From assembly GCA_964517065.1 (NCBI GenBank), contig CAZFBK010000004.1, forward strand, positions 1 through 63,894: DNA of 63,894 bases. The letters run 5' to 3'. A model generated the notes under the pieces. The model was given only the letters and a program-made list of their open reading frames with translations, did no database searches and was not told the DNA's origin. Source of the DNA: an uncultured Gammaproteobacteria bacterium. GTDB lineage: Bacteria; Patescibacteriota; Patescibacteriia; UBA1558; 2-01-FULL-52-15. This document shows, piece by piece, positions 1,917 through 20,617 of this stretch. The translations under genes and the position numbers were made by a program. Numbering within the stretch: position 1 is the first letter of the stretch; every line of letters starts with the position of its first letter.

Positions 1917-3317
1917 ATGATTACCTTATACAACAGTTTATCGAGAAAACGCGAGGAATTCGTTCCAGCTGATGGCAAGACAGTCAAACTCTATACCTGC
2001 GGTCCGACCGTCTACGATTTTTTGCATATTGGTAATTTACGCGCTTATACGACGTGGGATGTGCTGAAACGTATCTTGCGCTACGAAGGGTTTACAGTGA
2101 ATCATGTGATGAATATCACCGACGTTGGTCATTTGGTGGCTGACTCGGATGATGGTGAAGATAAGATGGAAGTAGCGAAGAAACGTGAGGGTAAGACAGC
2201 TTGGGATTTAGCAAAGCTATACACCGATTATTTCAAAAAAGACTTCGCAGATTTGGGCATACAGTTGGCTGATCATCTCGTACCAGCTACAGATACTATC
2301 AAAGAACAAATAGCCCTGGCTTTGAAGCTTGACGAAGCTGGTTTCTTGTACAAAACGACTGATGGCATGTATTTTGATACTAGTAAATTCCCGCACTACG
2401 GAGCTTTGGCACGACTTGAGAATGTTGATCTCCAAGCAGGTGTCCGTGTCGAGATGGGGGAGAAAAAATCGCCGACCGATTTCGCCGTGTGGAAATTTTC
2501 CCCAGTCAAAGACAAGCGCGACCCTTCGGCTGGCTCAGGGCGTGATATGGAATGGGAGAGTCCTTGGGGCAAGGGATTTCCGGGTTGGCATTTAGAATGT
2601 TCTGCTATTGCGATGAAGTATCTGGGTGAGACGTTAGACATTCATTGTGGTGGTATCGATCATCTGACGATTCATCATCCGAATGAGATCGCCCAATCAG
2701 AAGCAGTGACCGGCAAGCCGTTTGCCCGCTTCTGGATGCATAACGCTTTCCTGAATTTCGGTGAATTGAAAATGTCGAAATCAGCCGGCACCTATATTAC
2801 GCTAAAAGATATCAAAGATCGCGGTATCAGGCCGTTAGCCTATCGCTATTGGCTACTGCAGACGCACTATCGCAAGACATTGCAGTTCTCCTGGGAGGCA
2901 TTGGAAGCAGCTGCGACTGGTTTGGAGAATCTCTATGAGCAGGTAGCCTATCTTGATGAGCCAAGTCCAGATGTACCTGATAGTCTCTTGGCGGAAGCGT
3001 GGTCAAGCTTGTCTATAGATGTCGGTACACCGCAGGCCTTAGCGCAGATTCCGAAAATTCTGGCTTCCCATCAGACATCAGGAGTGAAGATGGGAGCGCT
3101 GAAAGTATTGGATGAATTATTAGGATTAGGCTTAGTAGCAGAACGTATGCGACGTCGTACTATCCCGCAGATTGCACATGGATTACTGGAAGATCGGCGG
3201 AAAGCCCGCGCAGCGGAGGATTGGGAGCGATCTGATCAGCTACGTGATGAGCTGGATAAATTAGGCGTGACGGTGAAGGATACGAAGGAGGGGCAGGTTG
3301 GGGTGTTGAAAAATTAA
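1917..3317 (+). CDS. cysS: Cysteine--tRNA ligase
   Basis: 466 aa. It has the class I aaRS HIGN (FLHIGNLR) and KMSKS motifs, and a CysRS-like WHLECSAI segment. Confidence 0.95.
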   Translation: MITLYNSLSRKREEFVPADGKTVKLYTCGPTVYDFLHIGNLRAYTTWDVLKRILRYEGFTVNHVMNITDVGHLVADSDDGEDKMEVAKKREGKTAWDLAKLYTDYFKKDFADLGIQLADHLVPATDTIKEQIALALKLDEAGFLYKTTDGMYFDTSKFPHYGALARLENVDLQAGVRVEMGEKKSPTDFAVWKFSPVKDKRDPSAGSGRDMEWESPWGKGFPGWHLECSAIAMKYLGETLDIHCGGIDHLTIHHPNEIAQSEAVTGKPFARFWMHNAFLNFGELKMSKSAGTYITLKDIKDRGIRPLAYRYWLLQTHYRKTLQFSWEALEAAATGLENLYEQVAYLDEPSPDVPDSLLAEAWSSLSIDVGTPQALAQIPKILASHQTSGVKMGALKVLDELLGLGLVAERMRRRTIPQIAHGLLEDRRKARAAEDWERSDQLRDELDKLGVTVKDTKEGQVGVLKN

Positions 3318-3342
3318 AAGTAAAAAGGCAAAACTAAAACAT

Positions 3343-3376
3343 GAACTGCGAAATATAAATTAGCAGTTCTTTTTTT
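3343..3376 (+). terminator. Intrinsic terminator after cysS
   Basis: GAACTGC (3343-3349) pairs with GCAGTTC (3363-3369) and is followed directly by a run of 7 T (3370-3376). Confidence 0.7.
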
Positions 3377-3438
3377 GTGCATCACCAAAGAAACACTATC
3401 ATTTTATTGTATTGTTTGTTAATATTGATAAATAAATA

Positions 3439-3560
3439 AGCCGTCGCTTTTCTATAAGCCGTCTATTTTAAGTAAAAAACGATGAAAGTAAATAAAAAGA
3501 TATCAGGTTAGCCAATAAGTAACAGCCGTCGCTTTCAAGAGCCGACAAAAAATAAGTGGA
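3439..3560 (+). promoter_or_regulatory. AGCCGTC-box intergenic module, copy 1
   Basis: AGCCGTC occurs at 3439, 3457 and 3524, with an AGCCGAC variant at 3540. The core TTAGCCAA..ACAGCCGTCG.TTTCAAGAGC.GACA is nearly identical to 19884-19935. It ends about 20 nt before the 3579 ATG. Confidence 0.5.
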
Positions 3561-3578
3561 TAAGTAATTAATCCTATT

Positions 3579-4382
3579 ATGAACAGACGCAGAGTCTTCA
3601 ATACATCCCCTGACAGGAATATCTTGCCCATAGTGGCAAAGGTATTGAATGATAGAAGAGGGTATATAAGTAAGCTTCCTGAAGCAAGGAAAGCGGTTAT
3701 TATTATATCCGGCGGGTTAGATTCGATCGCAACTTCGGCCTTTCTAATCCAAGAGTTAAAAATGGAATTATACCCACTTCATATACGAAGAGGACAAACC
3801 AATCATGTGGCGGAAGATAGATCGGTTGATTTTTTTACCAATTTTTTTCAAAAGAAATATGGATCTGATAAATTCCACGAACCCCAGAAGATTTCAGTAA
3901 ACATACCTCCGTCTGAGATTAAAAGTGGTTTAATCAACCACATGAAACAATACGGATACCCCATGAGAGATCCGGTCATGCATCTTTTGGGAGTTCAGTA
4001 TGCCATAGCTGTATCAGACAAGATTAGATCTGATATACGGGATGTATATTGCGCCATTGTCCCAGAAGACTATTTCCCTCACAGTAGTCTGGCGGGGTTA
4101 AGAGTTAATACTCTAAACACCTGTATTAATATGAATGACTGGAGGTGGAATCTAAGCGCACCGAATATTGATCCTTTATTGTTGAATAATACCTTTGGCA
4201 AGAAGGAAGAAATTATGTGGTCAATGACAAATGATATACCGATTGGTGAAACGATTTCATGTAATCTGGCAAATAGTGATACTAATTATTTGGCTTGTGG
4301 TACTTGCTCTTCATGTAGCAGAAGAAGTAAGTCATTTTTAGATGCGGGCTTTGATGATCCGACGAGATATTATAAAGAATAA
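3579..4382 (+). CDS. QueC/ExsB-like PP-loop ATPase
   Basis: 267 aa. It has the PP-loop SGGLDS near the N-terminus and a C-terminal Cys cluster (CGTCSSCSRR) like the QueC zinc site. No queD, queE, queF or folE gene is present in the window. Confidence 0.65.
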   Translation: MNRRRVFNTSPDRNILPIVAKVLNDRRGYISKLPEARKAVIIISGGLDSIATSAFLIQELKMELYPLHIRRGQTNHVAEDRSVDFFTNFFQKKYGSDKFHEPQKISVNIPPSEIKSGLINHMKQYGYPMRDPVMHLLGVQYAIAVSDKIRSDIRDVYCAIVPEDYFPHSSLAGLRVNTLNTCINMNDWRWNLSAPNIDPLLLNNTFGKKEEIMWSMTNDIPIGETISCNLANSDTNYLACGTCSSCSRRSKSFLDAGFDDPTRYYKE

Positions 4383-4383
4383 G

Positions 4384-5448
4384 ATGGAAATCTCTCAAGC
4401 AGCACAACGATTCTTTGAATTTAAGTTGGCTCCCTCAAAAGCTTCAAAAGGCAATGAGGATTTGCTTAGATTTGATTTGGCGGAAGGGTTATTAAATTCT
4501 GATAAAAAGTACTCAGCTCTTCCTGATAAGAATCCGCAGCATCTGAAAGAAATTTTGGCGGAATTTGTTTCTTGTGATTCAGACAATATAGCTTTTTTTG
4601 CTGGCGCGGATGAGATTATAGAGATTGTGCCTCGTTTATATCTTAATTATGGAGATGCATCACTTATCGTTACCCCTGTTTTTAGCAGATTAATAGATAC
4701 CAACGTTAAGGTTGGTGCTGAGGTAATTACCTATGCTCTCAGTGAGGATCATAACTTCAAATTAACAGACCAAGATGTGGTAAATATTGTTGAAATCGTT
4801 AAGCTTAAAAAAATAAAGGTTATCTGGCTTTGTTCTCCTAGTAATCCTACTGGCGTTCCGATCGCCGTTTCCAAGATAAAGAGATTGTCGACACTATGCC
4901 CGGACTCATTAGTTGTTGTCAATGAAGTCTACCAAGAATACTATAGTCTAAATCCTAAAGAGTCCGCTGGTTCTCTTATCGATTCCTGTAGTAGTTTAGT
5001 TGTAATTAGATCCTTTTCCAAAGCCTTTGGCTTAGCAGGCTTGAGGATTGGATACGCGGTGGCATCAAAAAGAATCATAGAAAACTTTACTAGGTATAAG
5101 ACCATGTTTAACGTCTCTGCAGTGGCTCAGGAAGAGGCCTTACGGGTGTTAACAACCAAAGCGGAAATAGAGAAATTAATAAGCCTTACAAGTTTATTGA
5201 GAGATCAGATTCAGGAATCGATAGGTATATTGAATAATTTTGAGTTTATAGAATCAAAAACTAATTTTATTTTCATGAGACACAAGACGAAAGATCTGTT
5301 TGAGGAATTATACCGGCGAGGAATATTAGTTTCCGACTGGAGGAATGCTAAAGGGGTTGAAGGTAGAGGTTTTGTTCGTATCTCGGTAAACTCCCAAAGG
5401 TTAAATACGATACTCATTGAATCTCTTAAAGATATTAATAAATCATAA
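4384..5448 (+). CDS. Class I/II PLP-dependent aminotransferase (HisC/CobD-like)
   Basis: It has the PLP-lysine motif SFSKAFGLAGLRIGY and the segment NPSNPTG. I prefer the ATG at 4384 (1 nt after the upstream stop) over the track start at 4342. Confidence 0.8.
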   Translation: MEISQAAQRFFEFKLAPSKASKGNEDLLRFDLAEGLLNSDKKYSALPDKNPQHLKEILAEFVSCDSDNIAFFAGADEIIEIVPRLYLNYGDASLIVTPVFSRLIDTNVKVGAEVITYALSEDHNFKLTDQDVVNIVEIVKLKKIKVIWLCSPSNPTGVPIAVSKIKRLSTLCPDSLVVVNEVYQEYYSLNPKESAGSLIDSCSSLVVIRSFSKAFGLAGLRIGYAVASKRIIENFTRYKTMFNVSAVAQEEALRVLTTKAEIEKLISLTSLLRDQIQESIGILNNFEFIESKTNFIFMRHKTKDLFEELYRRGILVSDWRNAKGVEGRGFVRISVNSQRLNTILIESLKDINKS

Positions 5449-5449
5449 T

Positions 5450-6076
5450 ATGAAACATATTGTAGCGAAGAACACAGGGGAAGCTTGGATTAAAGCATCT
5501 CAAGAAGTAATGCTTAATGGATTACCTGTTAAAGATGGGGAGGTTAATCTGAAAGAGTCGTTACATGTATTTTTAACGATTGAAGATCAGATTTCTAAAG
5601 ATGCAATAACCGAGAAATACGCTGATCCAACAATGATTGACTGGATGAGAAGGAATTTCTTTGATTTTGAACCAGTTTTGGATTGGGGGTATAGTTATGG
5701 TCAGAGGTTTTTCAATTATGATGGTATTAATCAGATCAAAAACGTTATAAAAAAACTAAAGAAGAATCCAGAATCCAAATCAGCAACAATATCACTCATG
5801 AATCCCGATGGTGACAAACATCATATGCCATGTATTGTTGCTATAGATTTCAAAATCAGAGACAATAAGCTTATTACAACTGCTTTTTTTCGAAGTCAGG
5901 ATGTCGGCAAAAAGATATACGCGGACATACTATGCATAGGAGAGATTGGTCAGATGATCGCTTCACAGTTGGATCTGCATTTGGGTGAACTACATATCCA
6001 CATTGTTTCACTACACGTCTATGAGCCTGATTGGGATCGAGTAAATAAGATGATATATCAAAATGAAATACGTTAA
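5450..6076 (+). CDS. Short thymidylate synthase / pyrimidine-nucleotide hydroxymethylase family protein
   Basis: HMPCIVAIDFKIRDNKLITTAFFRSQDV aligns with the ThyA active-site block [27 protein letters not shown], and the catalytic Cys is retained. It is about 208 aa, shorter than canonical ThyA. Confidence 0.6.
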   Translation: MKHIVAKNTGEAWIKASQEVMLNGLPVKDGEVNLKESLHVFLTIEDQISKDAITEKYADPTMIDWMRRNFFDFEPVLDWGYSYGQRFFNYDGINQIKNVIKKLKKNPESKSATISLMNPDGDKHHMPCIVAIDFKIRDNKLITTAFFRSQDVGKKIYADILCIGEIGQMIASQLDLHLGELHIHIVSLHVYEPDWDRVNKMIYQNEIR

Positions 6077-7811
6077 TCTAATAACTTCAAATAAGAATAA
6101 AGTCGAAGAATATGAGCGATATGTAAAATCTTTTGGTATTGATTTAGCTATTGAAATTAAAAACATCGAAGTGCTGGAGTTACAAAGTATGAATTCAGAG
6201 GAGGTTATAGCCGGTAAGGTTGAGTATGTTCAAGCAAGAACAACTCAACCATTCTTAATTGAGGACACATCATTTTTGACCGATAAATATCCAGACTTCC
6301 CGGGGACTAATACGAAATTTATCAACAAAACACTAGGGATCGATGGTTGGCGACAGCTTTTTGATGAAGGAGATAGGATACGTGCTCGTACCAGCTTAGC
6401 CTTCCACTATCTTGGCGAGACTCATATCTTTAGGGGAGAGATTGAAGGCGTTATTACTTTTAAAAATCTAAGTGATTTAAATACAGAAATGCTTTTGAAT
6501 AGCCTATTCTATGTAGAATCAAGCAATGATTTACTTGGTAATCTAATAAAAAAAGATTCATTTCAGAATCACAGAAAGAAAGCTTTTGGTAAATTTATAG
6601 ATTACATCAAAGTATCTGATCAAGAAGAATTTGAGGCTGTAGAGGGTATATCAAAAAAGTGGGGCGATCGAGCAAGTGATTGGGAAAGCGAATTAAGAAA
6701 TCCTAATTCTTATGTTAATTACGAGCAAGGGTATGATAGGTTCTTAGTTTTGATTAAAAAATTCATGCCGGAGATTACTGGAGAGGTATTGGATCTAGGT
6801 TGTGGTACGGGTTATATTGCCAGGCAGATTGCCGAGAAAAAAGATGTTAACGTCACGGGGATTGATATAAGCTTAGAGATGATACATACAGCAATGCCCT
6901 ATGAGAAGGAAAACTTAAAGTTTCGTCAAACTAGATTGAATCAAGTTTTCAAGGAAGATTTCTTTGATGTTATCGTTTCACGGGGAGCAATCATCTCGCA
7001 GATCCCTCAACTGAGTGTTTTTGATTTTATAAAATCTATTGACTGCATGGCTAAAGAGGGAGCTTATTTCTTTTTTGATTTTATTCAAAACCTTGAGAAC
7101 GGCGACTATCCCACAAAAAATATAATAAACCAGTTTTCATTAGATCAGATTACACGGATTATGGAGGAAATGGGTTGGGTAAAGATCTATGCTGAAGAAA
7201 GTGAGGTAGCTCGAGTTAGAATAGTCGGATTTCACAAATCAATGGAAAAGGGCGTGTATTTTGTTACAAGTAACCCCGCAAAAATAGAAGAATTCAAGGA
7301 AGCTATAGGAGAGTCTGACATTACCTTATTTTTTTGTGGCCTGACTATCGAAGAGATCAAATCAGACTCACTAGAAAAGATAGTGGCGGATAAGTTAGTG
7401 AAGAGCTTTGAAGTAATCAAGAAACCTGTTATCTGTACCGATGGAGGAATATTTATCAACGCACTCAATGGTTTCCCGGGCGAAAATTCTAAGCAGGCAG
7501 CTCAAAAGGTTGGAGCTCATGGTTTGTTGAAACTTATGGAGTCCGTGCAGGATAGATCAGCAGTCAGAAGAAATTGTATCGGTTATTATGATGGTGAGAA
7601 GATGGAATTTTTCACATCGGAGATATTGTGTGATATAAGTAAATCCGTTAGAGAAAAATATTCGTCGTATGAGTTAGACAAGATACTAATACCTCTGAGT
7701 AAAAGGAATCCCCAGCTCTTAACCTATTCAGAAATTGATTTGGCATCACGAGTGGCTTTAACTGAACTTCCTCAGTTGGCCGAGTTCATTCAAAAAATAC
7801 TCAGGGGGTGA
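6063..7811 (+). CDS. Tri-domain fusion: Ham1/ITPase-like, class I SAM methyltransferase, Ham1/ITPase-like
   Basis: N-terminal ITSNKNK and IEDTSF...FPGTNTKF resemble ITPA. The middle carries VLDLGCGTGYIA (SAM motif I). The C-terminal part has VTSNPAK and DGGIFINALNGFPGENSK, a second Ham1-like domain. Confidence 0.7.
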   Translation: MKYVNLITSNKNKVEEYERYVKSFGIDLAIEIKNIEVLELQSMNSEEVIAGKVEYVQARTTQPFLIEDTSFLTDKYPDFPGTNTKFINKTLGIDGWRQLFDEGDRIRARTSLAFHYLGETHIFRGEIEGVITFKNLSDLNTEMLLNSLFYVESSNDLLGNLIKKDSFQNHRKKAFGKFIDYIKVSDQEEFEAVEGISKKWGDRASDWESELRNPNSYVNYEQGYDRFLVLIKKFMPEITGEVLDLGCGTGYIARQIAEKKDVNVTGIDISLEMIHTAMPYEKENLKFRQTRLNQVFKEDFFDVIVSRGAIISQIPQLSVFDFIKSIDCMAKEGAYFFFDFIQNLENGDYPTKNIINQFSLDQITRIMEEMGWVKIYAEESEVARVRIVGFHKSMEKGVYFVTSNPAKIEEFKEAIGESDITLFFCGLTIEEIKSDSLEKIVADKLVKSFEVIKKPVICTDGGIFINALNGFPGENSKQAAQKVGAHGLLKLMESVQDRSAVRRNCIGYYDGEKMEFFTSEILCDISKSVREKYSSYELDKILIPLSKRNPQLLTYSEIDLASRVALTELPQLAEFIQKILRG

Positions 7812-7815
7812 CAAA

Positions 7816-8403
7816 GTGCGGAAAAACGTCGTTGTGTTGCTTGGAATCAACGGGGTGGGAAAATCAACCATTGCAGAAAAGTTGATTTGTCGCGTCCCAG
7901 GCTCAGTCGCTCTTTCGGGTTCTAAGATTCTGATGACGATCTTTGGCGGAGTAAGCAGAGAGGAGCTGGAGAAGCTTTCTGCTACAGAAAAGATGTCAAT
8001 GATGGAGCTTGCCTTTGTTGAGATATTCGAAAGACACTCTACGTCTCAACTCGTCGTACTTGATACTCATCTTGTCGTGCCCATCAGAAAGAGCGGGACT
8101 CTGGTCTTAGAGAACATCTGGTCTCCTAGATATGCCCCCTACGTGCGGTCAGTTTGCTTCATATGTGCCTCTCCTGGTGACATTAGGCAAAGACGTCTGA
8201 CTGATGAGAGGCTGACCGGACGCGCTCGCGATACAAACCTCGGAAATATCCGCTCTGACCAGGATCTTAATTTAGCCTCGTTCGAAGAAATCATTGTGCC
8301 AGATTTCGAATCAATGATTCTGCAGAACGCCAACGGGCAGGTTGATCTGGTTGTTGATAGGATAGCTGAGGATATCTGGGACAGCCAGACGCAGGCTGTT
8401 TAA
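7816..8403 (+). CDS. P-loop nucleotide/nucleoside kinase-like protein
   Basis: 195 aa with a GTG start. It has the Walker A motif GINGVGKST at the N-terminus and is the size of an adenylate/dNMP kinase. Confidence 0.55.
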   Translation: MRKNVVVLLGINGVGKSTIAEKLICRVPGSVALSGSKILMTIFGGVSREELEKLSATEKMSMMELAFVEIFERHSTSQLVVLDTHLVVPIRKSGTLVLENIWSPRYAPYVRSVCFICASPGDIRQRRLTDERLTGRARDTNLGNIRSDQDLNLASFEEIIVPDFESMILQNANGQVDLVVDRIAEDIWDSQTQAV

Positions 8404-8411
8404 AAAACAAG

Positions 8412-8438
8412 ACCGCTCTATCTACACGATAGGGCGGT
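8412..8438 (+). terminator. Hairpin terminator after the 3579-8403 operon
   Basis: ACCGCTCTATC pairs with GATAGGGCGGT (11 bp, including one G.U that pairs only in + strand RNA). Two more perfect hairpins follow, near 8476-8493 and 8499-8525. Confidence 0.5.
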
Positions 8439-8530
8439 TATTCATTGAACTCACAGCCTTTATTTGTGAGATGAGAAGTCCCTATCGGGGACTTACCCTT
8501 TGGATAACTGAAGTATCCAAAGGACAAAAC

Positions 8531-8587
8531 TTGACTATTTTCCATCATTCATCTAGTATTAAGACGGCTCTAATAAATTAGACGGCT
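8531..8587 (+). promoter_or_regulatory. Sigma-70-like promoter followed by two inverted GACGGCT boxes
   Basis: TTGACT (8531-8536), a 17-nt spacer, then TAGTAT (8554-8559). GACGGCT occurs at 8563 and 8581, 18 nt apart, and is the reverse complement of the AGCCGTC boxes. This is an operator-like position. Confidence 0.5.
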
Positions 8588-8593
8588 TATAAT

Positions 8594-9271
8594 ATGAATT
8601 TATACCCTTTCTCCCTATTATTAGTGGCTTTCATAAATTTTACCCTCGGTATCTATATATATTTCCGAAACAGAAAAAGCAATTTATATAAGATATTTCT
8701 AGGATTAACAACTTCGCTTGGTTTATGGTGCCTTGGTACTTTTTTTACGGTTCTTTATTCTGGAGATCTTAATCTATTTGGTTTCTTTGAACGTACTACA
8801 TTTGTCAGCGGTCTGTTGATCTCTCTATTTTTTTATATATTTTGCATCAACTTTCCCTATAAGAGCGCCTCATCTGGTAAATACCTCATTAGTTTATATG
8901 GTGCTATTATATTGATTTATACATACGTAATCTTTTTTACTACTTGGTTTGCACAAAACACAATATCTATAAACTCCTACACGACTTTGCAGCATAATGA
9001 TACATGGTTTATTTGTTGGGTGATTGCTTTTCTTCTACCACTTGTTGCTGGACTGCTTCAGCTATTTTATAAATTTAAAGCGACAGATGGTATTTATCGT
9101 GAATATTTATTAACCTTGTTGTTGGTCGCCGCCTTACCCATCCTTTTCAGCTTGTATTTCGATGTTTATCTGGTAGGATTGGAAAATTATCAATATAATA
9201 GTATATCTCCATTTTCATCTTTGCTTTTTGATTTTGCTATTTTAAGAATGATTTTAATTAAACGTCAATAG
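8594..9271 (+). CDS. Stand-alone 7TM membrane protein, paralogue 1 (like a histidine-kinase N-terminal 7TM domain)
   Basis: 225 aa and polytopic. The FRNRKSNLYKIFLGL...W block is shared with the next two ORFs and with the N-terminus of the kinase at 16329. Confidence 0.7.
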   Translation: MNLYPFSLLLVAFINFTLGIYIYFRNRKSNLYKIFLGLTTSLGLWCLGTFFTVLYSGDLNLFGFFERTTFVSGLLISLFFYIFCINFPYKSASSGKYLISLYGAIILIYTYVIFFTTWFAQNTISINSYTTLQHNDTWFICWVIAFLLPLVAGLLQLFYKFKATDGIYREYLLTLLLVAALPILFSLYFDVYLVGLENYQYNSISPFSSLLFDFAILRMILIKRQ

Positions 9272-9276
9272 TTTAT

Positions 9277-9963
9277 ATGGATCAAAGTATATTCGCGCTA
9301 CAACTAATCGGTCTTGCACTGGCAACTATCTTAAATTTGACTCTTGGGTTATTTGTTTTTTTTCGAAATCCAAAGGATTTAATATATAAGATTTTTTTAG
9401 CTCTAGCAGTTTCATTGGCTATTTGGTGTGCATCTATTTTTTTTGATTTATACTTTTACAATATTCCAGATCTATTGAATTTTTTTGATAGATTGCCATT
9501 TATTAGTGGCCTATTGATAGCTTTATTTTTTTACTTGTTTGCATTTCTTTATCCATACAAAAGCTCATCTATTTTTAAGTCAGCAATTTTGATTTATAGT
9601 GGAGTCATATTAGTATTTACTTACATTATATTTAGCTCGCTTTTTTTTATAGAAAATACGCAAAATTTTAATTTACCATTGCGTGCACCTAATCCAGCAA
9701 CCTATATAATTTATTCCGTAGTACTTGTAACTCCATTTATACTAGGTCTTTGGCAGCTTTATAGAAAGATGCGTGATGGTGACGGAGTATATCGCCAGGG
9801 TTTTCCTTTTTTTATTTCTATTGTTGCTATTGTAATTGCTTTGAGTTTCTTTTTTAATTTATTTTTGGCCGGGGTAAATAATAATTCCTTCATATCTGTA
9901 GGCCCTATTTCATCCCTGCTCTTTATTTATGCCATCATGCGCATGATAATTTCTAAGGAATAA
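9277..9963 (+). CDS. Stand-alone 7TM membrane protein, paralogue 2
   Basis: 228 aa, roughly half identical by eye to 8594-9271 (FFRNPKDLIYKIFLAL, FFYLFAFLYPYKSSS). Confidence 0.7.
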   Translation: MDQSIFALQLIGLALATILNLTLGLFVFFRNPKDLIYKIFLALAVSLAIWCASIFFDLYFYNIPDLLNFFDRLPFISGLLIALFFYLFAFLYPYKSSSIFKSAILIYSGVILVFTYIIFSSLFFIENTQNFNLPLRAPNPATYIIYSVVLVTPFILGLWQLYRKMRDGDGVYRQGFPFFISIVAIVIALSFFFNLFLAGVNNNSFISVGPISSLLFIYAIMRMIISKE

Positions 9964-9967
9964 AGTC

Positions 9968-10654
9968 ATGTTGATACAAGATTTACTAATAATTTTTACA
10001 GCTGGCATTAGCTTTGCCGTTGGGTTACTAATTGTTATGAGGGATAGACACGCGATGGTCAATATTATGTATTTTTTATTGACTATTTTCATGTCTTCTT
10101 GGGCGATCTCCCTGCTTATGTTTCGAACATACGAAGCTAACGATGTTGCTGAATTATTTGGTCGCTTCAGCTACATAGCAGGATTATTAATGGTCGTCTT
10201 TTTCTATATATTCACCAGATATTTCCCATATAGAGATCGTATGATTAGTAGAATAACAATAGCTTTCTTAGTGCTGATCTCAGCTATAACCATCTATATA
10301 ATGTTGTTTACTGATGTTCTAGTTAGTCGAGTGGTTGTTATCAACGGTGTTGTCTCTATGGTGACAAATCCATTTGTGCACGGCGCGTATGGTTTAATGC
10401 TACTGACACTTCTTATTTTGGGTATTGCGAACTTATTTCTCAAAAAACATAACAGCGGCGGGGATCACAGGAAGCAAATAGATTCGCTTTTAAGGGTGAG
10501 TTTAGTGGCTGGTATTTTTGGTGCAGTGTTTGATATTTTTCTGCCTATATTTGGTGATTATAGTTGGAATTGGTTAGGGCCGCAATTTTTAGTACTACTA
10601 TCCGTAGCGGTTGGTATGATTATTTATTCTCATAAGTTCACAGTACATGGGTAA
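9968..10654 (+). CDS. Stand-alone 7TM membrane protein, paralogue 3 (more divergent)
   Basis: 228 aa with the same topology and the motif FFYIFTRYFPYRD. Confidence 0.65.
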   Translation: MLIQDLLIIFTAGISFAVGLLIVMRDRHAMVNIMYFLLTIFMSSWAISLLMFRTYEANDVAELFGRFSYIAGLLMVVFFYIFTRYFPYRDRMISRITIAFLVLISAITIYIMLFTDVLVSRVVVINGVVSMVTNPFVHGAYGLMLLTLLILGIANLFLKKHNSGGDHRKQIDSLLRVSLVAGIFGAVFDIFLPIFGDYSWNWLGPQFLVLLSVAVGMIIYSHKFTVHG

Positions 10655-11615
10655 ACGTAAGAAAATAGCTTTAATCTTCGCCACGGGGACGGTTCTGTCG
10701 TCATTGAAGAGCCGCAGTATTGTTTTTGTTGATTCTGATACTGATATGTCGAAATGGTTGGAAGCTATTCCGGAGATTGGGTTGATCGCTGATATTCAAC
10801 CTCATTTTTTCTTATCTGAGTCAGCTACCTTCGGATATGACCAGACATTAGTATTATCTGAGAAGATTCAGCAGTTGACTGCAGAGGTGGACGGTATCGT
10901 TATTCTGATGCGAACAGAAAGCATTGTCTCACAGTCGGTATTACTGAACTTCCTTAATCAAAATCTAGCTATTCCCGTTATACTGACTGGTGCGGTGGTT
11001 TCACCTCAAGCTCTGACGGAAGGGGTCTTGTCAGAAGTATTCAAAAAAAGTGTAGCCTTGAGTTTGAAAAGTAATGTCATTAACGCCATTCAGGTAGCGA
11101 CTCGCGATTTTCATGGTTTTGGTATCATGTACGGCAACCGTTTGATCGAGCCGGTACGTGTCAGACGTGAAAATATTGAAAGTCTTAATATCTTTGCTGC
11201 TGCTGACGGCAAATACGCCGGCCGTGTAGAGTTCGGCATTAGTTTGAATCAAGGCAAAACAACAAGTAGACAGCCCAAACATTATCAGGCTTTTTCACGT
11301 CGGGTAGCTATTTTAGACTCATCTTTATTGACTGTAGATGATTTGAAAAAAGTGACAGCCGAAGCTGTTATTATCAAAATTCGAGAAAATGAACGTCTAG
11401 CAGACGATATCCATCAGGCCATACGTCACCTGAAGCAGCCAGTGATGCTATATAACTTCTGGTATGTATTGGAACATTCCGGTCTCGTGACCGTTGCGCG
11501 AATGACAGAGGCTAGTCTGCTGGCGAAAGTTATGTGGCTTCTGGCGTTGCGTCCGTCCAAGAAAGATTTCGAACGTACGATCACTGAGAACGTGATAGGG
11601 GAGATATTGTCATGA
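10647..11615 (+). CDS. Asparaginase/glutaminase (GatD-like) family protein with a divergent active site
   Basis: KKIALIFATGTV compares with the asparaginase ILATGGTI block, VILMRTES with HGTDT, and IPVILTGA with PVVLTGA. The similarity is at family level only. Confidence 0.4.
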   Translation: MGKRKKIALIFATGTVLSSLKSRSIVFVDSDTDMSKWLEAIPEIGLIADIQPHFFLSESATFGYDQTLVLSEKIQQLTAEVDGIVILMRTESIVSQSVLLNFLNQNLAIPVILTGAVVSPQALTEGVLSEVFKKSVALSLKSNVINAIQVATRDFHGFGIMYGNRLIEPVRVRRENIESLNIFAAADGKYAGRVEFGISLNQGKTTSRQPKHYQAFSRRVAILDSSLLTVDDLKKVTAEAVIIKIRENERLADDIHQAIRHLKQPVMLYNFWYVLEHSGLVTVARMTEASLLAKVMWLLALRPSKKDFERTITENVIGEILS

Positions 11616-12178
11616 GAATCTATTATTTCGCTAATGTGAAGAATCCGACTCAACTGCTGATCTTCCAGGAGACTTCTCAGCTTTTGCGTAAATACGGTTT
11701 ATCCATAATTGATAACGTCAAATCAAAACCAGATTTTGAGATGGGAGAGCAGGGAGGGATTGAGCAAATTGATGCTGTTGTGATCGATTCCAGCGGATTA
11801 GACGCAGAAGCAGGCTATTTATTGGCCGTAGCTATCGCTCATAAAAAGCCGGTTTTATATATGCTACCCACAGGATCTAAGCTTGATGATTCGGTTAAGG
11901 CTTTGACGCTTAATAAATCGATTAAAGAATATTTGCGGGTGGAGTTTTTCCTACCCGGCAATTTTGGCGCTAAGGTCAAAGAATTTTTACATTTTTTGGA
12001 TCAGGACATTGGCAAAGAAGCGCATTCAGTCAAATTCACTCTGCGTCTGACACCGAAGATTGAACGCTATCTGAATTGGAAAGCCGAGCAGAAAAAATCC
12101 AACAAAGCTGATTTTGTCCGTCAACAGTTAGAGGAGATGATGAAGCATGACGAGGATTACCGCAGCCGGTTGAGTTAG
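11612..12178 (+). CDS. Nucleoside 2-deoxyribosyltransferase-like domain fused to a C-terminal ribbon-helix-helix domain
   Basis: N-terminal MRIYYFAN plus IDAVVIDSSGLDAEAGYLLAVAIAHKKPV resemble the NDT/Rcl pattern (YxAG ... D.G...E.G.A...KPV). C-terminal KFTLRLTPKIERYLNWKAEQKKSNKADFVRQQLEEMM looks like a CopG/Arc RHH. Confidence 0.45.
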   Translation: MRIYYFANVKNPTQLLIFQETSQLLRKYGLSIIDNVKSKPDFEMGEQGGIEQIDAVVIDSSGLDAEAGYLLAVAIAHKKPVLYMLPTGSKLDDSVKALTLNKSIKEYLRVEFFLPGNFGAKVKEFLHFLDQDIGKEAHSVKFTLRLTPKIERYLNWKAEQKKSNKADFVRQQLEEMMKHDEDYRSRLS

Positions 12179-12191: not shown

Positions 12192-12248
12192 ACCACCTCA
12201 GGTCTTGGGGACCTGCCCCTCCTTTTAAAAGGAGGGGAACGGGGTGGT
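12192..12248 (+). repeat. 57-nt multi-stem palindromic element, copy 1
   Basis: ACCACCTC-AGGTC..GACCT-CCCCTCCTTTT/AAAAGGAGGGG-GGGGTGGT. It is nearly identical to 19652-19708. Confidence 0.85.
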
Positions 12249-12293: not shown

Positions 12294-13121
12294 ATGAATG
12301 GTGTAATAGCTCAACCAGCCAATTCTTCAGTGCTCGACTATGCCAGCAGGACAGACCTGAAGGCTAACGGCCGACCTTTTTTTTACGCCGCTGCTGACGG
12401 TAATCAAAAAACACTCGTAGTGCTGGTTCACGGTTTTAGTGGTTCGCCTTATGATCTGAGTGAATTAGGTCGTTACCTAGCTGATAATAATGTTAACGCT
12501 CGGGGAGTACTCTTAGCCGGTCATGGTGGTGATTATGCCACCTTTGCCCCGACGAGTCATATTGATTGGTGGCATAGCGTCAAGCTGGAGATAGATCGCT
12601 ACAAAGACGGCTATGATCAGATCTTTCTCATGGGCTATTCCTTTGGTTCCAATCTGGTCATCGATATCGCCTGTCGCTTCCCAGAATTAGCCACTGGCGT
12701 AATCTGTATGAGTCCTTCGGTCTACATTCGCAAACACAACAGGGTTCGATTTTTGAACGCTGTTTTTTCTTTATTCACTGACCACGTAGACAAACGCCGT
12801 ATGCCTCGCGAACGGCGCGCTATGTATGAGGCCGGCGGACGACATATCACTGTCTCGACGCGTAGTCTTGGAAGCTTTTTTGATTTTATTGAGTCCTATA
12901 CCAAACGTCAATTACCATTATTTCGTTCACCAATACTGTTGATTCATTCTCGTGATGACTACGCTTCTAGTCCGCGGAGTTCAGAGTACATTTTCGAAAA
13001 AATTGGTAGCGATGACAAAGAGCTCTTCATGATCAATGAGTTTGAACACAATCCATTGAACAGTAATAGCCGAAACGTTATATTTTCTAAGATTTTAGAA
13101 TTCATCGTTGAACATAGCTGA
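12294..13121 (+). CDS. Alpha/beta hydrolase (carboxylesterase/lipase-like)
   Basis: It has the HGFSGSP oxyanion region and the GYSFGS nucleophile elbow (GxSxG). Confidence 0.75.
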   Translation: MNGVIAQPANSSVLDYASRTDLKANGRPFFYAAADGNQKTLVVLVHGFSGSPYDLSELGRYLADNNVNARGVLLAGHGGDYATFAPTSHIDWWHSVKLEIDRYKDGYDQIFLMGYSFGSNLVIDIACRFPELATGVICMSPSVYIRKHNRVRFLNAVFSLFTDHVDKRRMPRERRAMYEAGGRHITVSTRSLGSFFDFIESYTKRQLPLFRSPILLIHSRDDYASSPRSSEYIFEKIGSDDKELFMINEFEHNPLNSNSRNVIFSKILEFIVEHS

Positions 13122-14803
13122 TGAATACTATTTTTCATAGATTCAGAGACATAGCAACTGCCCATAGCTCACGTATCTTTGTCGGGGACATTGTTGATGG
13201 TCGTATACAGCGTCAGACGTATGCTCAGATTTTGGACCAAGTGCAGTGTTTGGCTGCTTATTTTGGTTCTCTGGGTTTGCAGGCCGGAGACCGTGTAGCC
13301 TTGGTAGTGCCAAACTCAGCCGACTGGATTATTATCGATCTAGCCTGCGCGCAGCTTGGTCTGATTGATGTCCCGATCCATACAACGTATAGTTGGAATT
13401 ACATTCGTTACGCCGTTGAGCATTCAGGAGCTTCTGTTCTTGTTGCAGATAGCGTCCAATGGCGCAAGCACCAGACAGAGATTATGAATTTGGGATTACA
13501 GCAAGTGATCGTTCGGGGTGTCGACGACGTTGCTGCACCTGCGATTAGTTTGGCCACCTGCCTACAAGCAGAGCCGCTGAAAGAGTCAGTGAAAGTTTCT
13601 GAACACGACGTGCATACCATTGTCTATACTTCTGGTACTACAGCAGATCCAAAAGGTGTGATGCTGACGCATGATAATATTCTTTTTGATGCTGATGCCT
13701 CTCGACAAGTCATACCAATCACACCAGCTGACAGCTTTTTCTCTTTTTTGCCCTTGTCACATATGTTGGAGCGTACCGGCTGTTACTACACCGTCATGTC
13801 AGTCGGTGCCTCGGTATATTTTGCCAGCAGCAATGACAAGATTGGTGAAGAAGTGACGCTTGTCCGACCGACGATCATGCTCGCTGTGCCACGTATGTTC
13901 GAGAAAATGCATGAGAAAATTTTTGATACTATCGATAGCGGACCGGCTTGGAAGAAGCGATTATTTTTCAGAGCCTTACGAAGCAGACAAGGAGCACATC
14001 CTCTGGCACAGTGGTTCTATGAGGTACTCGTATTCAAAACAATCAAAGCCAAGTTGGGCGGTAGCTTGCGCTTTGTGGTCTCGGGTGGAGCATCACTGGA
14101 CCGCAAGATAGCCAAATTTTTCCAAACGATCGGTTTGCCAATCCTCGAAGGCTATGGTCTGACCGAGACTGCACCAGTTGTGGCTGTGAACCGATTGACC
14201 CAGACAAAAATAGGCACGGTTGGATTGCTTTTACCGGGCGTAGAGGTTACAATAGATAAAGAAAAGCAGATCTTGATCCGCGGTCGCAACGTGATGAAAG
14301 GATATTATAATAATGAAGTAGCGACGCAGGAAGCGATTGATAGTGAGGGATGGTTTCATTCCGGTGATATGGGCTTCATGGACAGTGAGGGTTACCTGAC
14401 GGTCGTTGGCCGGATCAAAGAATTGATCGTGCTGACCAACGGTAAAAAAGTGAATCCTGTTCCATTAGAGATATCACTGAACCGAAGTCGCTATATCAGT
14501 CAGAGTATGGTCTATGGCGATGGCCATAATCATCTGTCAGCTATCATCGTGCCTGATTTCAAAGAGCTGAATCTGTGGTTAGAGTCAGAGCAAATCATGA
14601 AGACGGGGATAGAATCACTAGTCATGTCACAGGTGAAGGAGCTCTTTGCCATGGAGATTAAGGATTGTTTGAAAGAGTATAATAGTATCGAGCAGGTAGT
14701 TGATTTCACATTAATAAGCGAAGAGTTTAGTCAGGAGAATGATTTCGTGACTCCAACACAAAAATTAAAAAGGAAGAAGATACAGAATTTTTTCACACAT
14801 TAG
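13121..14803 (+). CDS. Long-chain fatty acid--CoA ligase (AMP-binding family)
   Basis: It has the AMP-binding motif YTSGTTADPKGV and the motif EGYGLTET. 560 aa. Confidence 0.85.
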   Translation: MNTIFHRFRDIATAHSSRIFVGDIVDGRIQRQTYAQILDQVQCLAAYFGSLGLQAGDRVALVVPNSADWIIIDLACAQLGLIDVPIHTTYSWNYIRYAVEHSGASVLVADSVQWRKHQTEIMNLGLQQVIVRGVDDVAAPAISLATCLQAEPLKESVKVSEHDVHTIVYTSGTTADPKGVMLTHDNILFDADASRQVIPITPADSFFSFLPLSHMLERTGCYYTVMSVGASVYFASSNDKIGEEVTLVRPTIMLAVPRMFEKMHEKIFDTIDSGPAWKKRLFFRALRSRQGAHPLAQWFYEVLVFKTIKAKLGGSLRFVVSGGASLDRKIAKFFQTIGLPILEGYGLTETAPVVAVNRLTQTKIGTVGLLLPGVEVTIDKEKQILIRGRNVMKGYYNNEVATQEAIDSEGWFHSGDMGFMDSEGYLTVVGRIKELIVLTNGKKVNPVPLEISLNRSRYISQSMVYGDGHNHLSAIIVPDFKELNLWLESEQIMKTGIESLVMSQVKELFAMEIKDCLKEYNSIEQVVDFTLISEEFSQENDFVTPTQKLKRKKIQNFFTH

Positions 14804-14808
14804 TATTT

Positions 14809-15516
14809 ATGAGATCATCATCGTCTACAGCGCTAACCACAAAATTTTACCTTGGTGATCAATTAAATGATCTATTAAGTCAAAAAAATAAAGGTTTATT
14901 AGATCAGATTATTCAATGTTATATTGAGGTTTTTAATGAAAGTTGGGGTGAGAAATGGGATTACGAATCTGCGTCAAATGAGATAACAAGCAGTTTTAAA
15001 AACAATAAAAGTAGAATCCCATTAGCCGTTTTTTTATTTGATAAATCTCGAGTAGTTGGGTTTGCATGGGCCATAATTACAGATATTATCCATATCGAGT
15101 CTGAAAAAGACATGCCTTTTAATATTTTAAAAGGTGAGAAAAACGATGGTGTTGATTCTTTGAAATTTTGGATGAAAATATGGGGCAAAAAAAGTATTTT
15201 AGTTTTTCGAGAAATGGGAGTTCTCAAATCATATAGGGGAGGACATGCTCTCTCGTTATTTTTACCAATAATTAAGTCAGCTAGGGAAAATAATTGTGAC
15301 TATATAAATTATTGGACATCTCCAGAAAGTGCGACTTTTAAACTTGGATTGTCAATTGGTTTTTGGCCGATTAAGATTTTTAATAAAAATGACTTAATAT
15401 TATTGATGGGAAATATGAATTATGTATTCTCCTTATTAAAGAAATATAAAAGTCGTAACATATTAAGTAAGATTGAGTTCAAAGGGCGGTTAAGGGGTAA
15501 TATTATTAAATATTAA
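14809..15516 (+). CDS. GNAT-like acyltransferase (weak)
   Basis: VFREMGVLKSYRGGHALSLFL resembles GNAT motif A. The segment is strongly AT-rich. Confidence 0.35.
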   Translation: MRSSSSTALTTKFYLGDQLNDLLSQKNKGLLDQIIQCYIEVFNESWGEKWDYESASNEITSSFKNNKSRIPLAVFLFDKSRVVGFAWAIITDIIHIESEKDMPFNILKGEKNDGVDSLKFWMKIWGKKSILVFREMGVLKSYRGGHALSLFLPIIKSARENNCDYINYWTSPESATFKLGLSIGFWPIKIFNKNDLILLMGNMNYVFSLLKKYKSRNILSKIEFKGRLRGNIIKY

Positions 15517-15531
15517 ATATAGTTAGCACTC

Positions 15532-16323
15532 ATGAATTTAAAAAAAATAATGTCAACTGAGGATAATTTTTGTGAAGGTGCGTTGTTATCAAAATCGGGC
15601 CACTACTTACTCGGTATTAACCTGTCTGTTTCAAAGGTGACAAATAAGTTTTCTGACGAACACTCTCATGTATTAGATGAGATTAATGCATTCGACAGAG
15701 CAGAGGTTGAAAACTTCAATATGGGTCAAATTAATATGATTGTAGTTTCATCATTCTCTGGTCCAAAGGGTGCCATTTGGGGGTTTGACTTATGCTCGAC
15801 TCCGCTAATTAAGAATAACTATTCTATAAATTTAAAGAGTATCGATGTTTATGATCTAGATAATCTAATCGATGCACTTAAAAGTCTTTTTGGCACAGTT
15901 AGTAAACCTAGATTTCCTCTACTCCCAGGTTCACACGTTCCTTGCGCCTCTAAGTCAATTTATAGAGAAGGTCCGGGTATTCTTTATTCCGCGCTTGCTC
16001 TTGGTGTGTCTGAAAATAGAAATAATGCCTGTTTACTAATGGAAGATGTAGGAACTCTGAATTTAAAAGACAGTGTTAGAAATCAAGAAATAAAAATTAC
16101 CAGCAGACTTGTAGATAGTGTCGTCGAGATTGGTAAGAATCAAAATTACAAATTTAAGAAAATATTTGTTGGAATGAAAACCATTATATTGCATGAAGGG
16201 GAGACGGGTTGTGCCTTAGTAGCTTGTCCGTATTTCTTGCTTGCAAAGAAAGCGGTGAAAAAAAGTCACAATTTGGCTAATATATCACTTGAAAAGTGGG
16301 AAAACATACAAAGATTTAAATAG
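15532..16323 (+). CDS. Pyruvoyl-dependent decarboxylase of the HdcA (histidine decarboxylase) family
   Basis: VLDEINAFDRAEVENFNMGQINMIVVSSFSG matches my recollection of Lactobacillus 30a HdcA around the Ser-Ser self-cleavage site (VLDGIVSYDRAETKNAYIGQINMTTASSFTG). The SS pair is encoded at 15748-15753. LPGSHVPCASK and LLMEDVGT also align. Confidence 0.7.
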   Translation: MNLKKIMSTEDNFCEGALLSKSGHYLLGINLSVSKVTNKFSDEHSHVLDEINAFDRAEVENFNMGQINMIVVSSFSGPKGAIWGFDLCSTPLIKNNYSINLKSIDVYDLDNLIDALKSLFGTVSKPRFPLLPGSHVPCASKSIYREGPGILYSALALGVSENRNNACLLMEDVGTLNLKDSVRNQEIKITSRLVDSVVEIGKNQNYKFKKIFVGMKTIILHEGETGCALVACPYFLLAKKAVKKSHNLANISLEKWENIQRFK

Positions 16324-16328
16324 ACTAA

Positions 16329-19630: not shown

Positions 19631-19720
19631 ACAGGGAGATAGTTAATTAGGACCACCCCAGGTCTTGAGGACCTGCCCCTCCTTTTAAAAGGAGGGGAAC
19701 GGGGTGGTCGATCTCCCTGT
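19631..19720 (+). repeat. Multi-stem palindromic element, copy 2, with an extra outer inverted repeat
   Basis: The core at 19652-19708 is near-identical to 12192-12248. It is bracketed by ACAGGGAGAT (19631-19640) and ATCTCCCTGT (19711-19720), and it abuts the DUF559 start codon. Confidence 0.85.
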
Positions 19721-19814
19721 TTATTACTTCCACTATGCCAGAGATTAAGATATTTGAAAAGCTTCAAGAGATCTTGATTTTCTGCGTAATTTTGATAAAA
19801 TAAGCGTATTAAAT

Positions 19815-19935
19815 AGCCGTCCTTTATCATACAGCCGTCGCATTTGTACTCAAATGTGACTCAAAAATAAAAATAGCTACCTAGTTAGCCAAAAACAAAC
19901 AGCCGTCGGTTTCAAGAGCAGACAGAATAAGAGTG
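19815..19935 (+). promoter_or_regulatory. AGCCGTC-box intergenic module, copy 2
   Basis: AGCCGTC occurs at 19815, 19833 and 19901. The spacings of 18 and 68 nt compare with 18 and 67 nt in copy 1. The distance to the downstream ATG (19955) is also the same. Confidence 0.5.
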
Positions 19936-19954
19936 TATAACTAAGTATCTATTT

Positions 19955-20305
19955 ATGACTAAGTATAAAATATCATTATTTCGAGTTAGATCAGAGTATC
20001 GAGAGATAATCTGCGGTCTGGGTATTCACCGAGCTTCATCAATTCGAGAAGCGGTATCGTTACTTGATGCTGATCCCTTGATTCGGGAGACACGAGTGTT
20101 ATTTACGATAGATAACGAATTATTTCTGGGCATGTGGACTCCTGTTGATATTCTCGGTAGGCCGGTATTACTACTACTTGAAGGTTCTCAAGCGAAAGTT
20201 TTGCAACGAGCGTTGGTATCAAGTTCATATTCGTTGGAACGATTGTTACGGGAGGAGTCTGGCAGTATGGGTGTAAGGTGGGAACAGCAGGAAGCGGAGG
20301 GTTAA
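19955..20305 (+). CDS. Hypothetical protein
   Basis: 116-aa ORF immediately downstream of box module copy 2, with no recognisable motif. Confidence 0.45.
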   Translation: MTKYKISLFRVRSEYREIICGLGIHRASSIREAVSLLDADPLIRETRVLFTIDNELFLGMWTPVDILGRPVLLLLEGSQAKVLQRALVSSSYSLERLLREESGSMGVRWEQQEAEG

Positions 20306-20340
20306 GGTTATTTAAAAAATGACGATTGTGCTTGTCTGTT

Positions 20341-20367
20341 CGCTCCCGGTCTCGCGAGATGGGAGCG
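20341..20367 (+). other. Hairpin presenting the palindrome TCTCGCGAGA in its loop (left copy)
   Basis: The stem is CGCTCCC/GGGAGCG. The loop carries TCTCGCGAGA at 20350-20359. Confidence 0.6.
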
Positions 20368-20428
20368 ATCAGCTAAGCATGGTGTTTAGCTGAAACTCCT
20401 CTTTATGGGGAGAAAGTGAGTTCTTTGT

Positions 20429-20548: not shown

Positions 20549-20573
20549 TACCCCAGTTCGTTCATGAACGAAG

Positions 20574-20605: not shown

Positions 20606-20617
20606 ACAAAGTTATAT

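Follow-up and report, generated by a model that had tools for sequence, protein, structure and literature searches.

Paired AGCCGTC boxes as probable operators of a ribbon-helix-helix regulator with a DNPH1-like domain in an uncultivated wastewater bacterium

In a chromosomal stretch of a metagenome-assembled genome (MAG) from wastewater (contig CAZFBK010000004.1, positions 1 to 63,894, the whole of which is hereafter called the window), the heptamer AGCCGTC and its reverse complement GACGGCT occur as paired boxes upstream of three transcription units. These boxes are probably operators of a ligand-sensing ribbon-helix-helix (RHH) regulator of 188 amino acids (aa), likely a repressor, which is encoded at the end of one of these units and would control its own operon and two neighbouring ones, a reading to which we assign a probability of about 0.7. 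The window contains gap, cysS, pgk, eno, ribosomal protein genes and the mraZ division cluster, and all three units are located in the interval between cysS and pgk.

A preliminary description of this DNA had listed eight boxes, three upstream of the operon beginning at 3579 (3439, 3457 and 3524, plus strand), three upstream of the open reading frame (ORF) beginning at 19955 (19815, 19833 and 19901, plus strand) and two in front of the operon beginning at 8594 (8563 and 8581, minus strand), and all of them are indeed present. The spacings it gave, 18 and 67 nucleotides (nt) at 3579 and 18 and 68 nt at 19955, hold as well, and so does the distance of about 55 nt from the third box to the ATG (55 and 54 nt, respectively). 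However, the third box of each array, although real, is only the first half of a second pair, with a degenerate fourth box (AGCnGAC) 16 nt past it, and the two upstream regions align not over a shared core of about 50 nt, as had been proposed, but over about 170 nt from the -10 element to the ATG. Both arrays have the same layout, with a promoter followed by pair A, pair B about 85 bp further on, a motif of 10-11 nt and a start codon lacking a Shine-Dalgarno sequence, the last box of pair B ending about 33 nt before the start codon. The paired sites are as follows.

3439-3445 and 3457-3463, plus strand: array 1, pair A, two AGCCGTC boxes 18 nt apart start to start, at about +7 to +31 of the predicted transcript.
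3524-3530 and 3540-3546, plus strand: array 1, pair B, AGCCGTC and degenerate AGCCGAC, 16 nt apart start to start.
19815-19821 and 19833-19839, plus strand: array 2, pair A, two AGCCGTC boxes at about +7 to +31 of the predicted transcript.
19901-19907 and 19917-19923, plus strand: array 2, pair B, AGCCGTC and degenerate AGCAGAC, the AGCnGAC form being kept in related loci L123, L126 and L129.
8563-8569 and 8581-8587, AGCCGTC boxes on the minus strand (GACGGCT on the plus strand): putative autoregulatory operator, its second box stopping 6 nt before the ATG.

The window contains 14 copies of AGCCGTC as compared to 4.67 +/- 2.1 in shuffled sequences, and none of 100 shuffles reached 14. Eight of these copies form the three intergenic arrays and the other six are single sites, approximately the number expected by chance. 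Box pairs spaced 15-21 nt apart with at most one mismatch number five, against 0.09 expected and a maximum of two among 200 Markov shuffles, and four of the five are the sites listed above or parts of them. The fifth pair (36207/36226), the only intragenic one found, is located inside LDGWG codons of a phosphoglycerate mutase gene and is probably due to chance. This gene is the second of two adjoining genes for cofactor-independent phosphoglycerate mutase-like proteins (34510-37745; 550 and 528 aa), the first of which was scanned and the second identified from its LDGWG motif.

Conservation of the pairs was followed in about 70 loci with homologues of the 188-aa protein (designated by L numbers), and densities were calculated over 678 kb of related loci. 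Homologues span 98% to 31% identity, with related contigs of 26-56% GC, and one of them is labelled Candidatus Woesebacteria. In this comparison of orthologous intergenic regions, which had been suggested beforehand, box pairs were found to accompany homologues of 31-84% identity. (A/C)GCCGTC(G/T) boxes paired at 16-19 nt are observed at two places, namely the transcription start of the operon with the asparaginase-like and regulator genes and, with two pairs per array, ahead of a neighbouring operon of variable content, and the box consensus over 161 distinct sites reads W-W-g-(A/C)-GCCGTC-(G/t)-c. Pairs are by no means equally frequent elsewhere, since their density amounts to 0.62/kb in these two expected zones and to 0.023/kb in the rest of the 678 kb, a difference of about 26-fold. 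In close relatives (59-84% identity), a cluster comprising seven-transmembrane (7TM), asparaginase-like, regulator, hydrolase, ligase, variable enzyme and kinase genes directly follows cysS, with a pair after the -10 element of the 7TM operon, either as AGCCGTC-N12-GACGGCT or as GACGGCT-N11-GACGGCT, and a two-pair array, spaced at 18-19 and 68-69 nt, behind the kinase gene. In distant relatives (31-38% identity, GC 26-56%), which include 68 metagenome loci, the asparaginase-like/regulator gene pair is the only constant, the two genes adjoining each other in all annotated loci and in L157. An exact GCCGTC pair 17-19 nt apart is found just upstream of these genes in 30 of 46 distant loci with enough upstream DNA, most of the remaining ones carrying a pair with one mismatch, and in the sampled distant loci the upstream pair begins about 3-13 nt past a TATAAT-like hexamer. 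A two-pair array is located just 3' of the regulator gene in 20 of 53 distant loci, with an 18-nt pair and, about 90-120 nt later, a 16-nt pair, both halves of pair B being exact GCCGTC 16 nt apart in these relatives. The loci L134-L136, without a kinase or 7TM gene nearby, retain the pair upstream of the asparaginase-like/regulator genes, and the presence of pairs at the operon start with or without 7TM and kinase genes supports the earlier suggestion of operator-like sites of a small regulon.

It was also considered that the arrays could have no part in regulation and either derive from a repeated or mobile element or serve in recombination, as the module of about 170 nt is duplicated in the window and heads an inserted operon of lower GC, and a separate 57-nt repeat flanks the 12.2-19.7 kb segment. 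However, invariance within the array modules is confined to the boxes, the hexamers of the promoter and a single additional motif, the remainder drifting, the positions relative to the -10 element and to start codons are fixed across phylogenetically distant loci, and neither a recombinase nor a transposase was found when the annotated genes of the 3-22 kb region and those of the clusters in relatives were examined, which makes this explanation highly improbable. Nor does the conserved core behave as a dispersed repeat unrelated to promoters, for it is tied to them. DNA contigs from related wastewater runs, compared with 3250-3650, offered no usable strain variation. A scan of a genome collection with the three-box pattern returned at least 120 loci, almost all of them coding repeats of high-GC Myxococcota or Actinomycetota; none related to the window was among the matches listed, and this listing is uninformative on relatives.

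A sigma-70-type promoter precedes each of the three arrays, and transcription starts derived from these promoters are predictions at all loci, those of the window falling at about 3432, 8566 and 19808.

8531-8559, plus strand: own-operon promoter of the candidate regulator, TTGACT, 17 nt, TAGTAT.
3417-3425, plus strand: promoter P1 of array 1, extended -10-like TGtTAATAT with a weak -35 element.
19774-19801, plus strand: promoter P1 of array 2, TTGATT, 16 nt including TG, TAAAAT.

The promoter of the 8594 operon, already recognized in the preliminary description, was confirmed by the promoter scanner, and TTGACA/TTGACT-17-TAnnnT is kept at the equivalent site in L123, L126 and L129. P1 of array 1 was not called by the scanner; its TGtTAATAT corresponds in the alignment to the -10 element TGaTAAAAT that array 2 and relatives possess, the first box following at an equal distance of 13 nt. 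In 14 distant arrays, TTGACA-N17(TG)-TAAAAT is conserved, TTGAC and TG-TAnnnT being invariant in the alignment. The pair at 8594 begins 3 nt past the -10 element, and the first pair at 3579 and 19955 begins 13 nt past it. A reading of the boxes themselves as promoters of an extracytoplasmic function (ECF) sigma factor, of sigma-54 or of the Bacteroidota type was rejected by eye, given the unfit spacing and the canonical sigma-70 hexamers just upstream.

The candidate regulator is encoded together with its constant partner at the end of the 8594 operon.

10647-11615, plus strand: asparaginase-like protein, its gene overlapping the regulator gene by 4 nt.
11612-12178, plus strand: candidate box-binding regulator, 188 aa, DNPH1/Rcl-like at residues 1-131 and with a C-terminal ribbon-helix-helix at about 139-180.

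This protein had been put forward earlier as an RHH-domain candidate binder. Its linkage to the boxes and the model of its C-terminus support that proposal, but it consists of two domains, a DNPH1-like one and an RHH one. Residues 3-131 match the DNPH1/Rcl profile (hmmsearch E 3.2e-8 to 4fyh), and the flavodoxin-like fold of the N-terminal domain likewise matches DNPH1/Rcl (Foldseek E 1.5e-6, probability 1.0). The glutamate of the GYELG motif, which we take to be the catalytic residue of Rcl, is replaced by Leu70 (GYLLA), invariant in 17 homologues. Because of this invariant leucine at the catalytic position, an enzymatic role of the domain appears unlikely, and it probably serves in binding, as a small-molecule sensor. 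The AlphaFold2 models, which are monomers, predict for residues 132-188 (57 residues) an extended N-terminus and two helices with a confidence (pLDDT) of 85, that is, a strand-helix-helix arrangement. Top Foldseek matches of this C-terminal model are almost all RHH proteins (Arc, CopA antitoxin, ORF56, CopG, AmrZ, ParG, TacA and NikA), with probabilities of 0.8-0.96, target TM-scores of 0.7-0.8 and a root-mean-square deviation of 1.4-1.7 A over 39 residues; the E-values of 0.5-3 are weak because the domain is small. Below threshold, Pfam gave HicB for the C-terminus of eight of 14 homologues, with a best E of 2e-4 that does not reach the cut-off, NikA-like for two and TraY for one, families which we take to be ribbon-helix-helix, and a sequence search of the PDB returned no match for the C-terminal domain. 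The segment KFTLR, putatively the DNA-reading strand of the modelled domain, shows no variation among the 17 aligned homologues, and of 17 further loci 16 have it and one has KYTLR. An invariant KFTLR together with an invariant GCCGTC would be consistent with the strands of an RHH dimer inserted into the major groove of a short subsite; since strand and box are both invariant, a co-variation test between them was uninformative.

From the linkage and the domain content we infer that this protein is the binder. Another factor could in principle occupy the boxes, either the asparaginase-like protein or a response regulator that works with the 7TM-GAF histidine kinase (16329-19229). No response-regulator gene adjoins that of the kinase, the ORFs at 14809-15516 and 19955-20305 could not be assigned to a family, response regulators typically bind direct repeats, and the asparaginase-like gene is linked to the boxes as tightly as the RHH gene. 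Opposed to this, loci without kinase or 7TM genes retain the pair upstream of the asparaginase-like/RHH genes, the two ORFs without a family match are not conserved, with relatives carrying other enzymes in their place, and among the scanned ORFs, which cover most of the window, no receiver domain and no DNA-binding-type domain was found besides the RHH of the regulator and MraZ. Furthermore, we know of no DNA-binding role for the asparaginase fold. Binding by such another factor is therefore regarded as unlikely, and the RHH protein is retained as the candidate.

An additional feature of arrays in distant relatives concerns the region between the two pairs. There, a strong TTGACA-17-TAAAAT promoter precedes the two boxes, after which come an A-rich stretch, a conserved TTGAAAAT, a hairpin and a T-run. 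The arms of this hairpin, preceded by an A-tract, differ between loci and yet stay complementary (L152, L153, L155, L157, e.g. at 10790-10850, L159, L163, L165, L167, L169, L170, L172 and L173). Judged from such sequences, it looks like an intrinsic terminator yielding an RNA of about 105 nt or an attenuated leader; it was seen sequence by sequence, and RNAalifold on a MAFFT alignment did not show it. In the window lineage this inter-pair terminator hairpin is absent. The four leaders of that lineage have no common structure and their folding z-scores against shuffles are -0.70, -2.64, -0.05 and +0.62, three of the four being near zero, while only tRNAs reach the Rfam gathering score in the window and eight related loci. 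Metatranscriptome contigs of related strains cover 19789-19924 at greater depth than the neighbouring genes, though transcript starts cannot be placed from them.

These features bear on whether the boxes act in RNA, as 5' leaders or a small RNA whose GCCGUC repeats are bound by protein or paired with RNA, the 8594 transcript carrying the complementary GACGGCU. The array boxes are downstream of the predicted start and in sense orientation in 44 of 46 cases, the distant unit of promoter, boxes, A-rich stretch and covarying terminator resembles a gene for an RNA of about 105 nt, and the metatranscriptome depth over 19789-19924 points in the same direction. However, the autoregulatory pairs, which are 17-19 nt apart, occur in all four orientations at orthologous positions (++ in 15, -- in eight, +- in five and -+ in two), and some begin 3 nt past the -10 element, i.e. 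before the transcript start. Moreover, leaders of the window lineage have no shared structure, overall fold no better than shuffles and lack the terminator, and Rfam gave no match at the arrays in the window or in the eight related loci. The orientation flips at orthologous sites thus favour recognition of double-stranded DNA, and action of the boxes in RNA is considered quite unlikely.

With the boxes read as DNA operators of the RHH protein, one RHH dimer would read one (A/C)GCCGTC(G/T) box, and the N-terminal domains, serving as sensor and dimerisation module, would join two RHH dimers, so that a single oligomer could bind two boxes, whatever their orientation, at a distance of 16-19 bp. 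On the operon of the regulator itself (8594-12178), which perhaps reads through to the kinase gene, the pair would cover about -4 to +22 of a strong sigma-70 promoter, and repression is expected there because the pair overlaps the transcription start. At 3579 and 19955, pair A would be occupied at about +7 to +31 and the weaker pair B about 85 bp downstream, near the start codon, a separation of about eight helical turns that would allow for looping or for cooperative binding. Occupancy would then change with a ligand, plausibly a nucleotide-like one, of the DNPH1-like domain.

Several points weigh against this reading. Assignment of the binder rests on co-occurrence and on the RHH being the sole DNA-binding-type domain of the conserved gene pair, and sequence comparison leaves the RHH assignment below threshold (best Pfam E 2e-4), with a Foldseek E of about 0.5. 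A distance of 16-19 bp centre to centre corresponds to non-integral helical turns, and tolerance of both orientations assumes a flexible linker. Array pairs are ++ in 44 of 46 cases whereas autoregulatory pairs flip freely, hence orientation could matter at arrays. Because a covarying hairpin with a T-run is located between pairs A and B in 12 of 14 distant arrays, P1 may make a short RNA, with the downstream gene using a promoter near pair B and the protein acting there as activator rather than repressor. The positions relative to transcription, too, depend on predicted starts.

The motif after pair B has two forms in the window.

3555-3565, plus strand: post-pair-B motif of array 1, aGTGGATAAGT, 9-10 nt past pair B and 14 nt before the ATG.
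19933-19942, plus strand: post-pair-B motif of array 2, GTGTATAACT, a variant form of the motif at 3555-3565.

TG.G.ATAA.T after pair B is invariant in 14 arrays and resembles a single MraZ-box unit (AAAGTGK) or a DnaA box. It was examined as a sigma-70 promoter near pair B and rejected, having G/C at the critical last T of the -10 element and its TG out of register. The two 11-mers TGGGGATAAGT and TGTGTATAACT, which correspond to the two forms of the motif, recur at 52471 and 52491 in the promoter of mraZ (52547-52978; Pfam MraZ, E 7e-42). Upstream of this gene (52435-52501), TATAAT is followed by AAAGTGG-ATA-AAAGTGG-GGA-TAAGTAT-TAC-TAACTGTGT. The published core site of MraZ, (AAAGTGK N3)3, has at least three AAAGTGK units with a 10-nt period (PMC5282649). 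The sequence upstream of mraZ in the window matches it, with two perfect and two degenerate units at 52457-52501, and the same upstream sequence is present in the distant 56%-GC locus L136 (2476-2520). In contrast, the box arrays do not qualify as MraZ operators, as each carries a single unit (3555-3565 and 19933-19942) versus at least three at a 10-nt period. Each unit of the mraZ promoter also matches the DnaA box at eight of nine positions. Between the inserted operon and the 8594 promoter (8404-8530), hairpins are found at 8410-8440 (terminator-like, without a clear T-run), 8479-8495 (GTCCCtatcGGGGAC) and 8497-8524 (CCTTTGGATAactgaagTATCCAAAGG), the last including TGGATAACT, a further copy of the MraZ/DnaA-like core.

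The cysS-pgk interval holds the operons 3579-8403 and 8594-12178, the genes at 12294-19229, a reverse-oriented DUF559 gene, and array 2 with its cargo.

3579-8403, plus strand: putative target operon 1 with five genes, for a QueC-like PP-loop ATPase, a HisC-like aminotransferase, a thymidylate-synthase-like protein, a methyltransferase-Ham1/ITPase fusion and a P-loop kinase.
8594-10654, plus strand: three small 7TM membrane proteins, first genes of the 8594 operon, two of which match the HisKA_7TM sensor module.
19955-21892, plus strand: putative target operon 2, a 116-aa protein without a family match and an M16-type peptidase.

Best matches of the 3579-8403 proteins, below family cut-offs, are archaeal-type enzymes (QueC/QatC-like PP-loop ATPase, HisC-like aminotransferase, methanogen-type thymidylate synthase, a methyltransferase fused to an XTP/dITP diphosphatase and an adenylate-kinase-like P-loop protein). 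The operon looks like a pathway for a modified nucleotide or nucleoside, and its position under a regulator with a DNPH1-like (hydroxymethyl-dUMP hydrolase-like) domain is a suggestive functional hint. Since close relatives lack it, with cysS leading straight to the 7TM promoter, and its GC is lower (0.37 versus 0.44), it is a lineage-specific insertion that brought its own diverged array copy. Exact look-ups gave no match for ORF 19955 or for glyceraldehyde-3-phosphate dehydrogenase (GAPDH), and the QueC-like protein has no record outside the source wastewater run. The 7TM gene at 9277-9963 has no significant family match.

Downstream of the regulator gene, a hydrolase, an AMP-dependent ligase, an ORF without a family, a pyruvoyl histidine-decarboxylase-like enzyme and the 7TM-GAF histidine kinase follow each other at 12294-19229. 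A 57-nt internally palindromic direct repeat, centred on CCCCTCCTTTTAAAAGGAGGGG and 96% identical between its copies at 12192-12248 and 19652-19708, flanks the 7.4-kb segment from the hydrolase to the DUF559 gene, the copies following the regulator gene and preceding array 2, respectively; no third copy is present in the window. In the window and in loci L122-L130 and L133, the 7TM proteins, hydrolase, ligase and kinase are constant while the enzymes between ligase and kinase change, being a methyltransferase and an acetyltransferase in L122, an aminotransferase and an amidohydrolase in L126, and an acetyltransferase and a phosphatidylserine-decarboxylase-like protein in L129, in place of the family-less ORF and histidine-decarboxylase-like enzyme of the window. 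Such swapped enzymes would fit lineage-specific variants of one small acylated-amine product sensed by the 7TM modules.

Cargo behind the arrays varies as well, many loci carrying a protein of about 78 aa similar to the C-terminus of GreA, and L173 a radical-SAM enzyme, and to judge from these sequences the array behaves as a portable control module. In L126 (19331-19501) and L133 (2234-2386), a short peptide gene behind the array is followed by a radical-SAM/SPASM enzyme; the L126 peptide has 56 aa, is Cys-rich and ends in KCAGECTCRCCK, that of L133 has 50 aa, and both look like loci for ribosomal peptide natural products. In the window, the array-2 operon is followed at 22288-29276 by a 2237-aa SpvB/FG-GAP/RHS-repeat protein and a 90-aa ORF, an arrangement usual for polymorphic toxins and their immunity proteins.

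To our knowledge, almost nothing is known about the control of transcription in uncultivated small-genome bacteria, to which this MAG appears to belong. The present analysis offers a candidate regulator family, an operator consensus (A/C)GCCGTC(G/T) in pairs 16-19 nt apart, an autoregulatory site and a movable target-marking module. The motif can be used for reading regulons straight from metagenomes, and it points to co-regulation of cargo that lacks annotation, for instance the nucleotide-modification-like operon and small peptides accompanied by radical-SAM enzymes. If the assignment is true, the fusion of an RHH to a DNPH1-like fold devoid of the catalytic residue would represent a new kind of sensor domain for such repressors. 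As a tentative extension, in which we place rather little confidence, the DNPH1-like/RHH protein and its asparaginase-like partner might constitute a widespread undescribed small-molecule switch of Patescibacteria-like lineages, probably a sensor of a nucleotide derivative, driving interchangeable cargo through a portable module in which a promoter and pair A are followed, in many lineages after a terminated RNA of about 105 nt, by pair B and an MraZ/DnaA-like box. Its cargo would comprise the GreA-C-terminal-like mini-protein, Cys-rich peptides with radical-SAM maturases and, here, the nucleotide-modification-like operon and the peptidase/RHS locus, and the window lineage would have combined the switch with 7TM sensors, with enzymes that form amines and with a kinase, in the manner of a circuit for signalling between cells.

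Repeated subsites and fused sensor domains are both familiar among RHH repressors. Neither Pfam, Rfam nor the literature searched showed the combination of a DNPH1-like domain with an RHH, the GCCGTC operator or such a regulon in these lineages, the literature giving nothing relevant on the motif, on RHH with deoxyribosyltransferase or on Patescibacteria regulons. In the nickel-responsive RHH repressor NikR of Helicobacter pylori, hemi-operators are located 20 nt apart centre to centre (PMC5385501). The likeness to NikR consists in an RHH fused to a ligand-binding oligomerisation domain, in sites overlapping promoters including that of the regulator itself, and in one oligomer thought to span two hemi-operators about two turns apart, with 16-19 nt observed here. 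However, the domain architecture differs from that of NikR, in which an N-terminal RHH precedes an ACT-like, nickel-binding tetramerisation domain, whereas here a DNPH1/Rcl-like sensor comes first and the RHH last, and the half-sites are GC-rich GCCGTC in direct or inverted repeats 16-19 nt apart instead of a fixed dyad. HicB-type antitoxins, which give the closest Pfam signal, likewise have a globular N-terminal domain and a C-terminal RHH, and repression of the own operon is apparently shared, but here the partner is asparaginase-like with no HicA-like toxin, the N-terminal domain is DNPH1-like and the regulon includes other operons. In the omega repressor of pSM19035 and inc18 plasmids, which lacks a sensor domain, an RHH dimer reads a 7-bp unit within contiguous heptads. 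As in the present case, arrays of such units in direct or inverted orientation serve several promoters of one gene set, whereas the omega heptads follow each other with a 7-bp period and the boxes described here are separated by 9-12 bp. Finally, resemblance to the DNPH1/Rcl hydrolases concerns the fold and profile of the N-terminal domain only (residues 3-131), which differs from those enzymes in having GYLLA, with its invariant leucine, in place of the GYELG that carries the catalytic glutamate.

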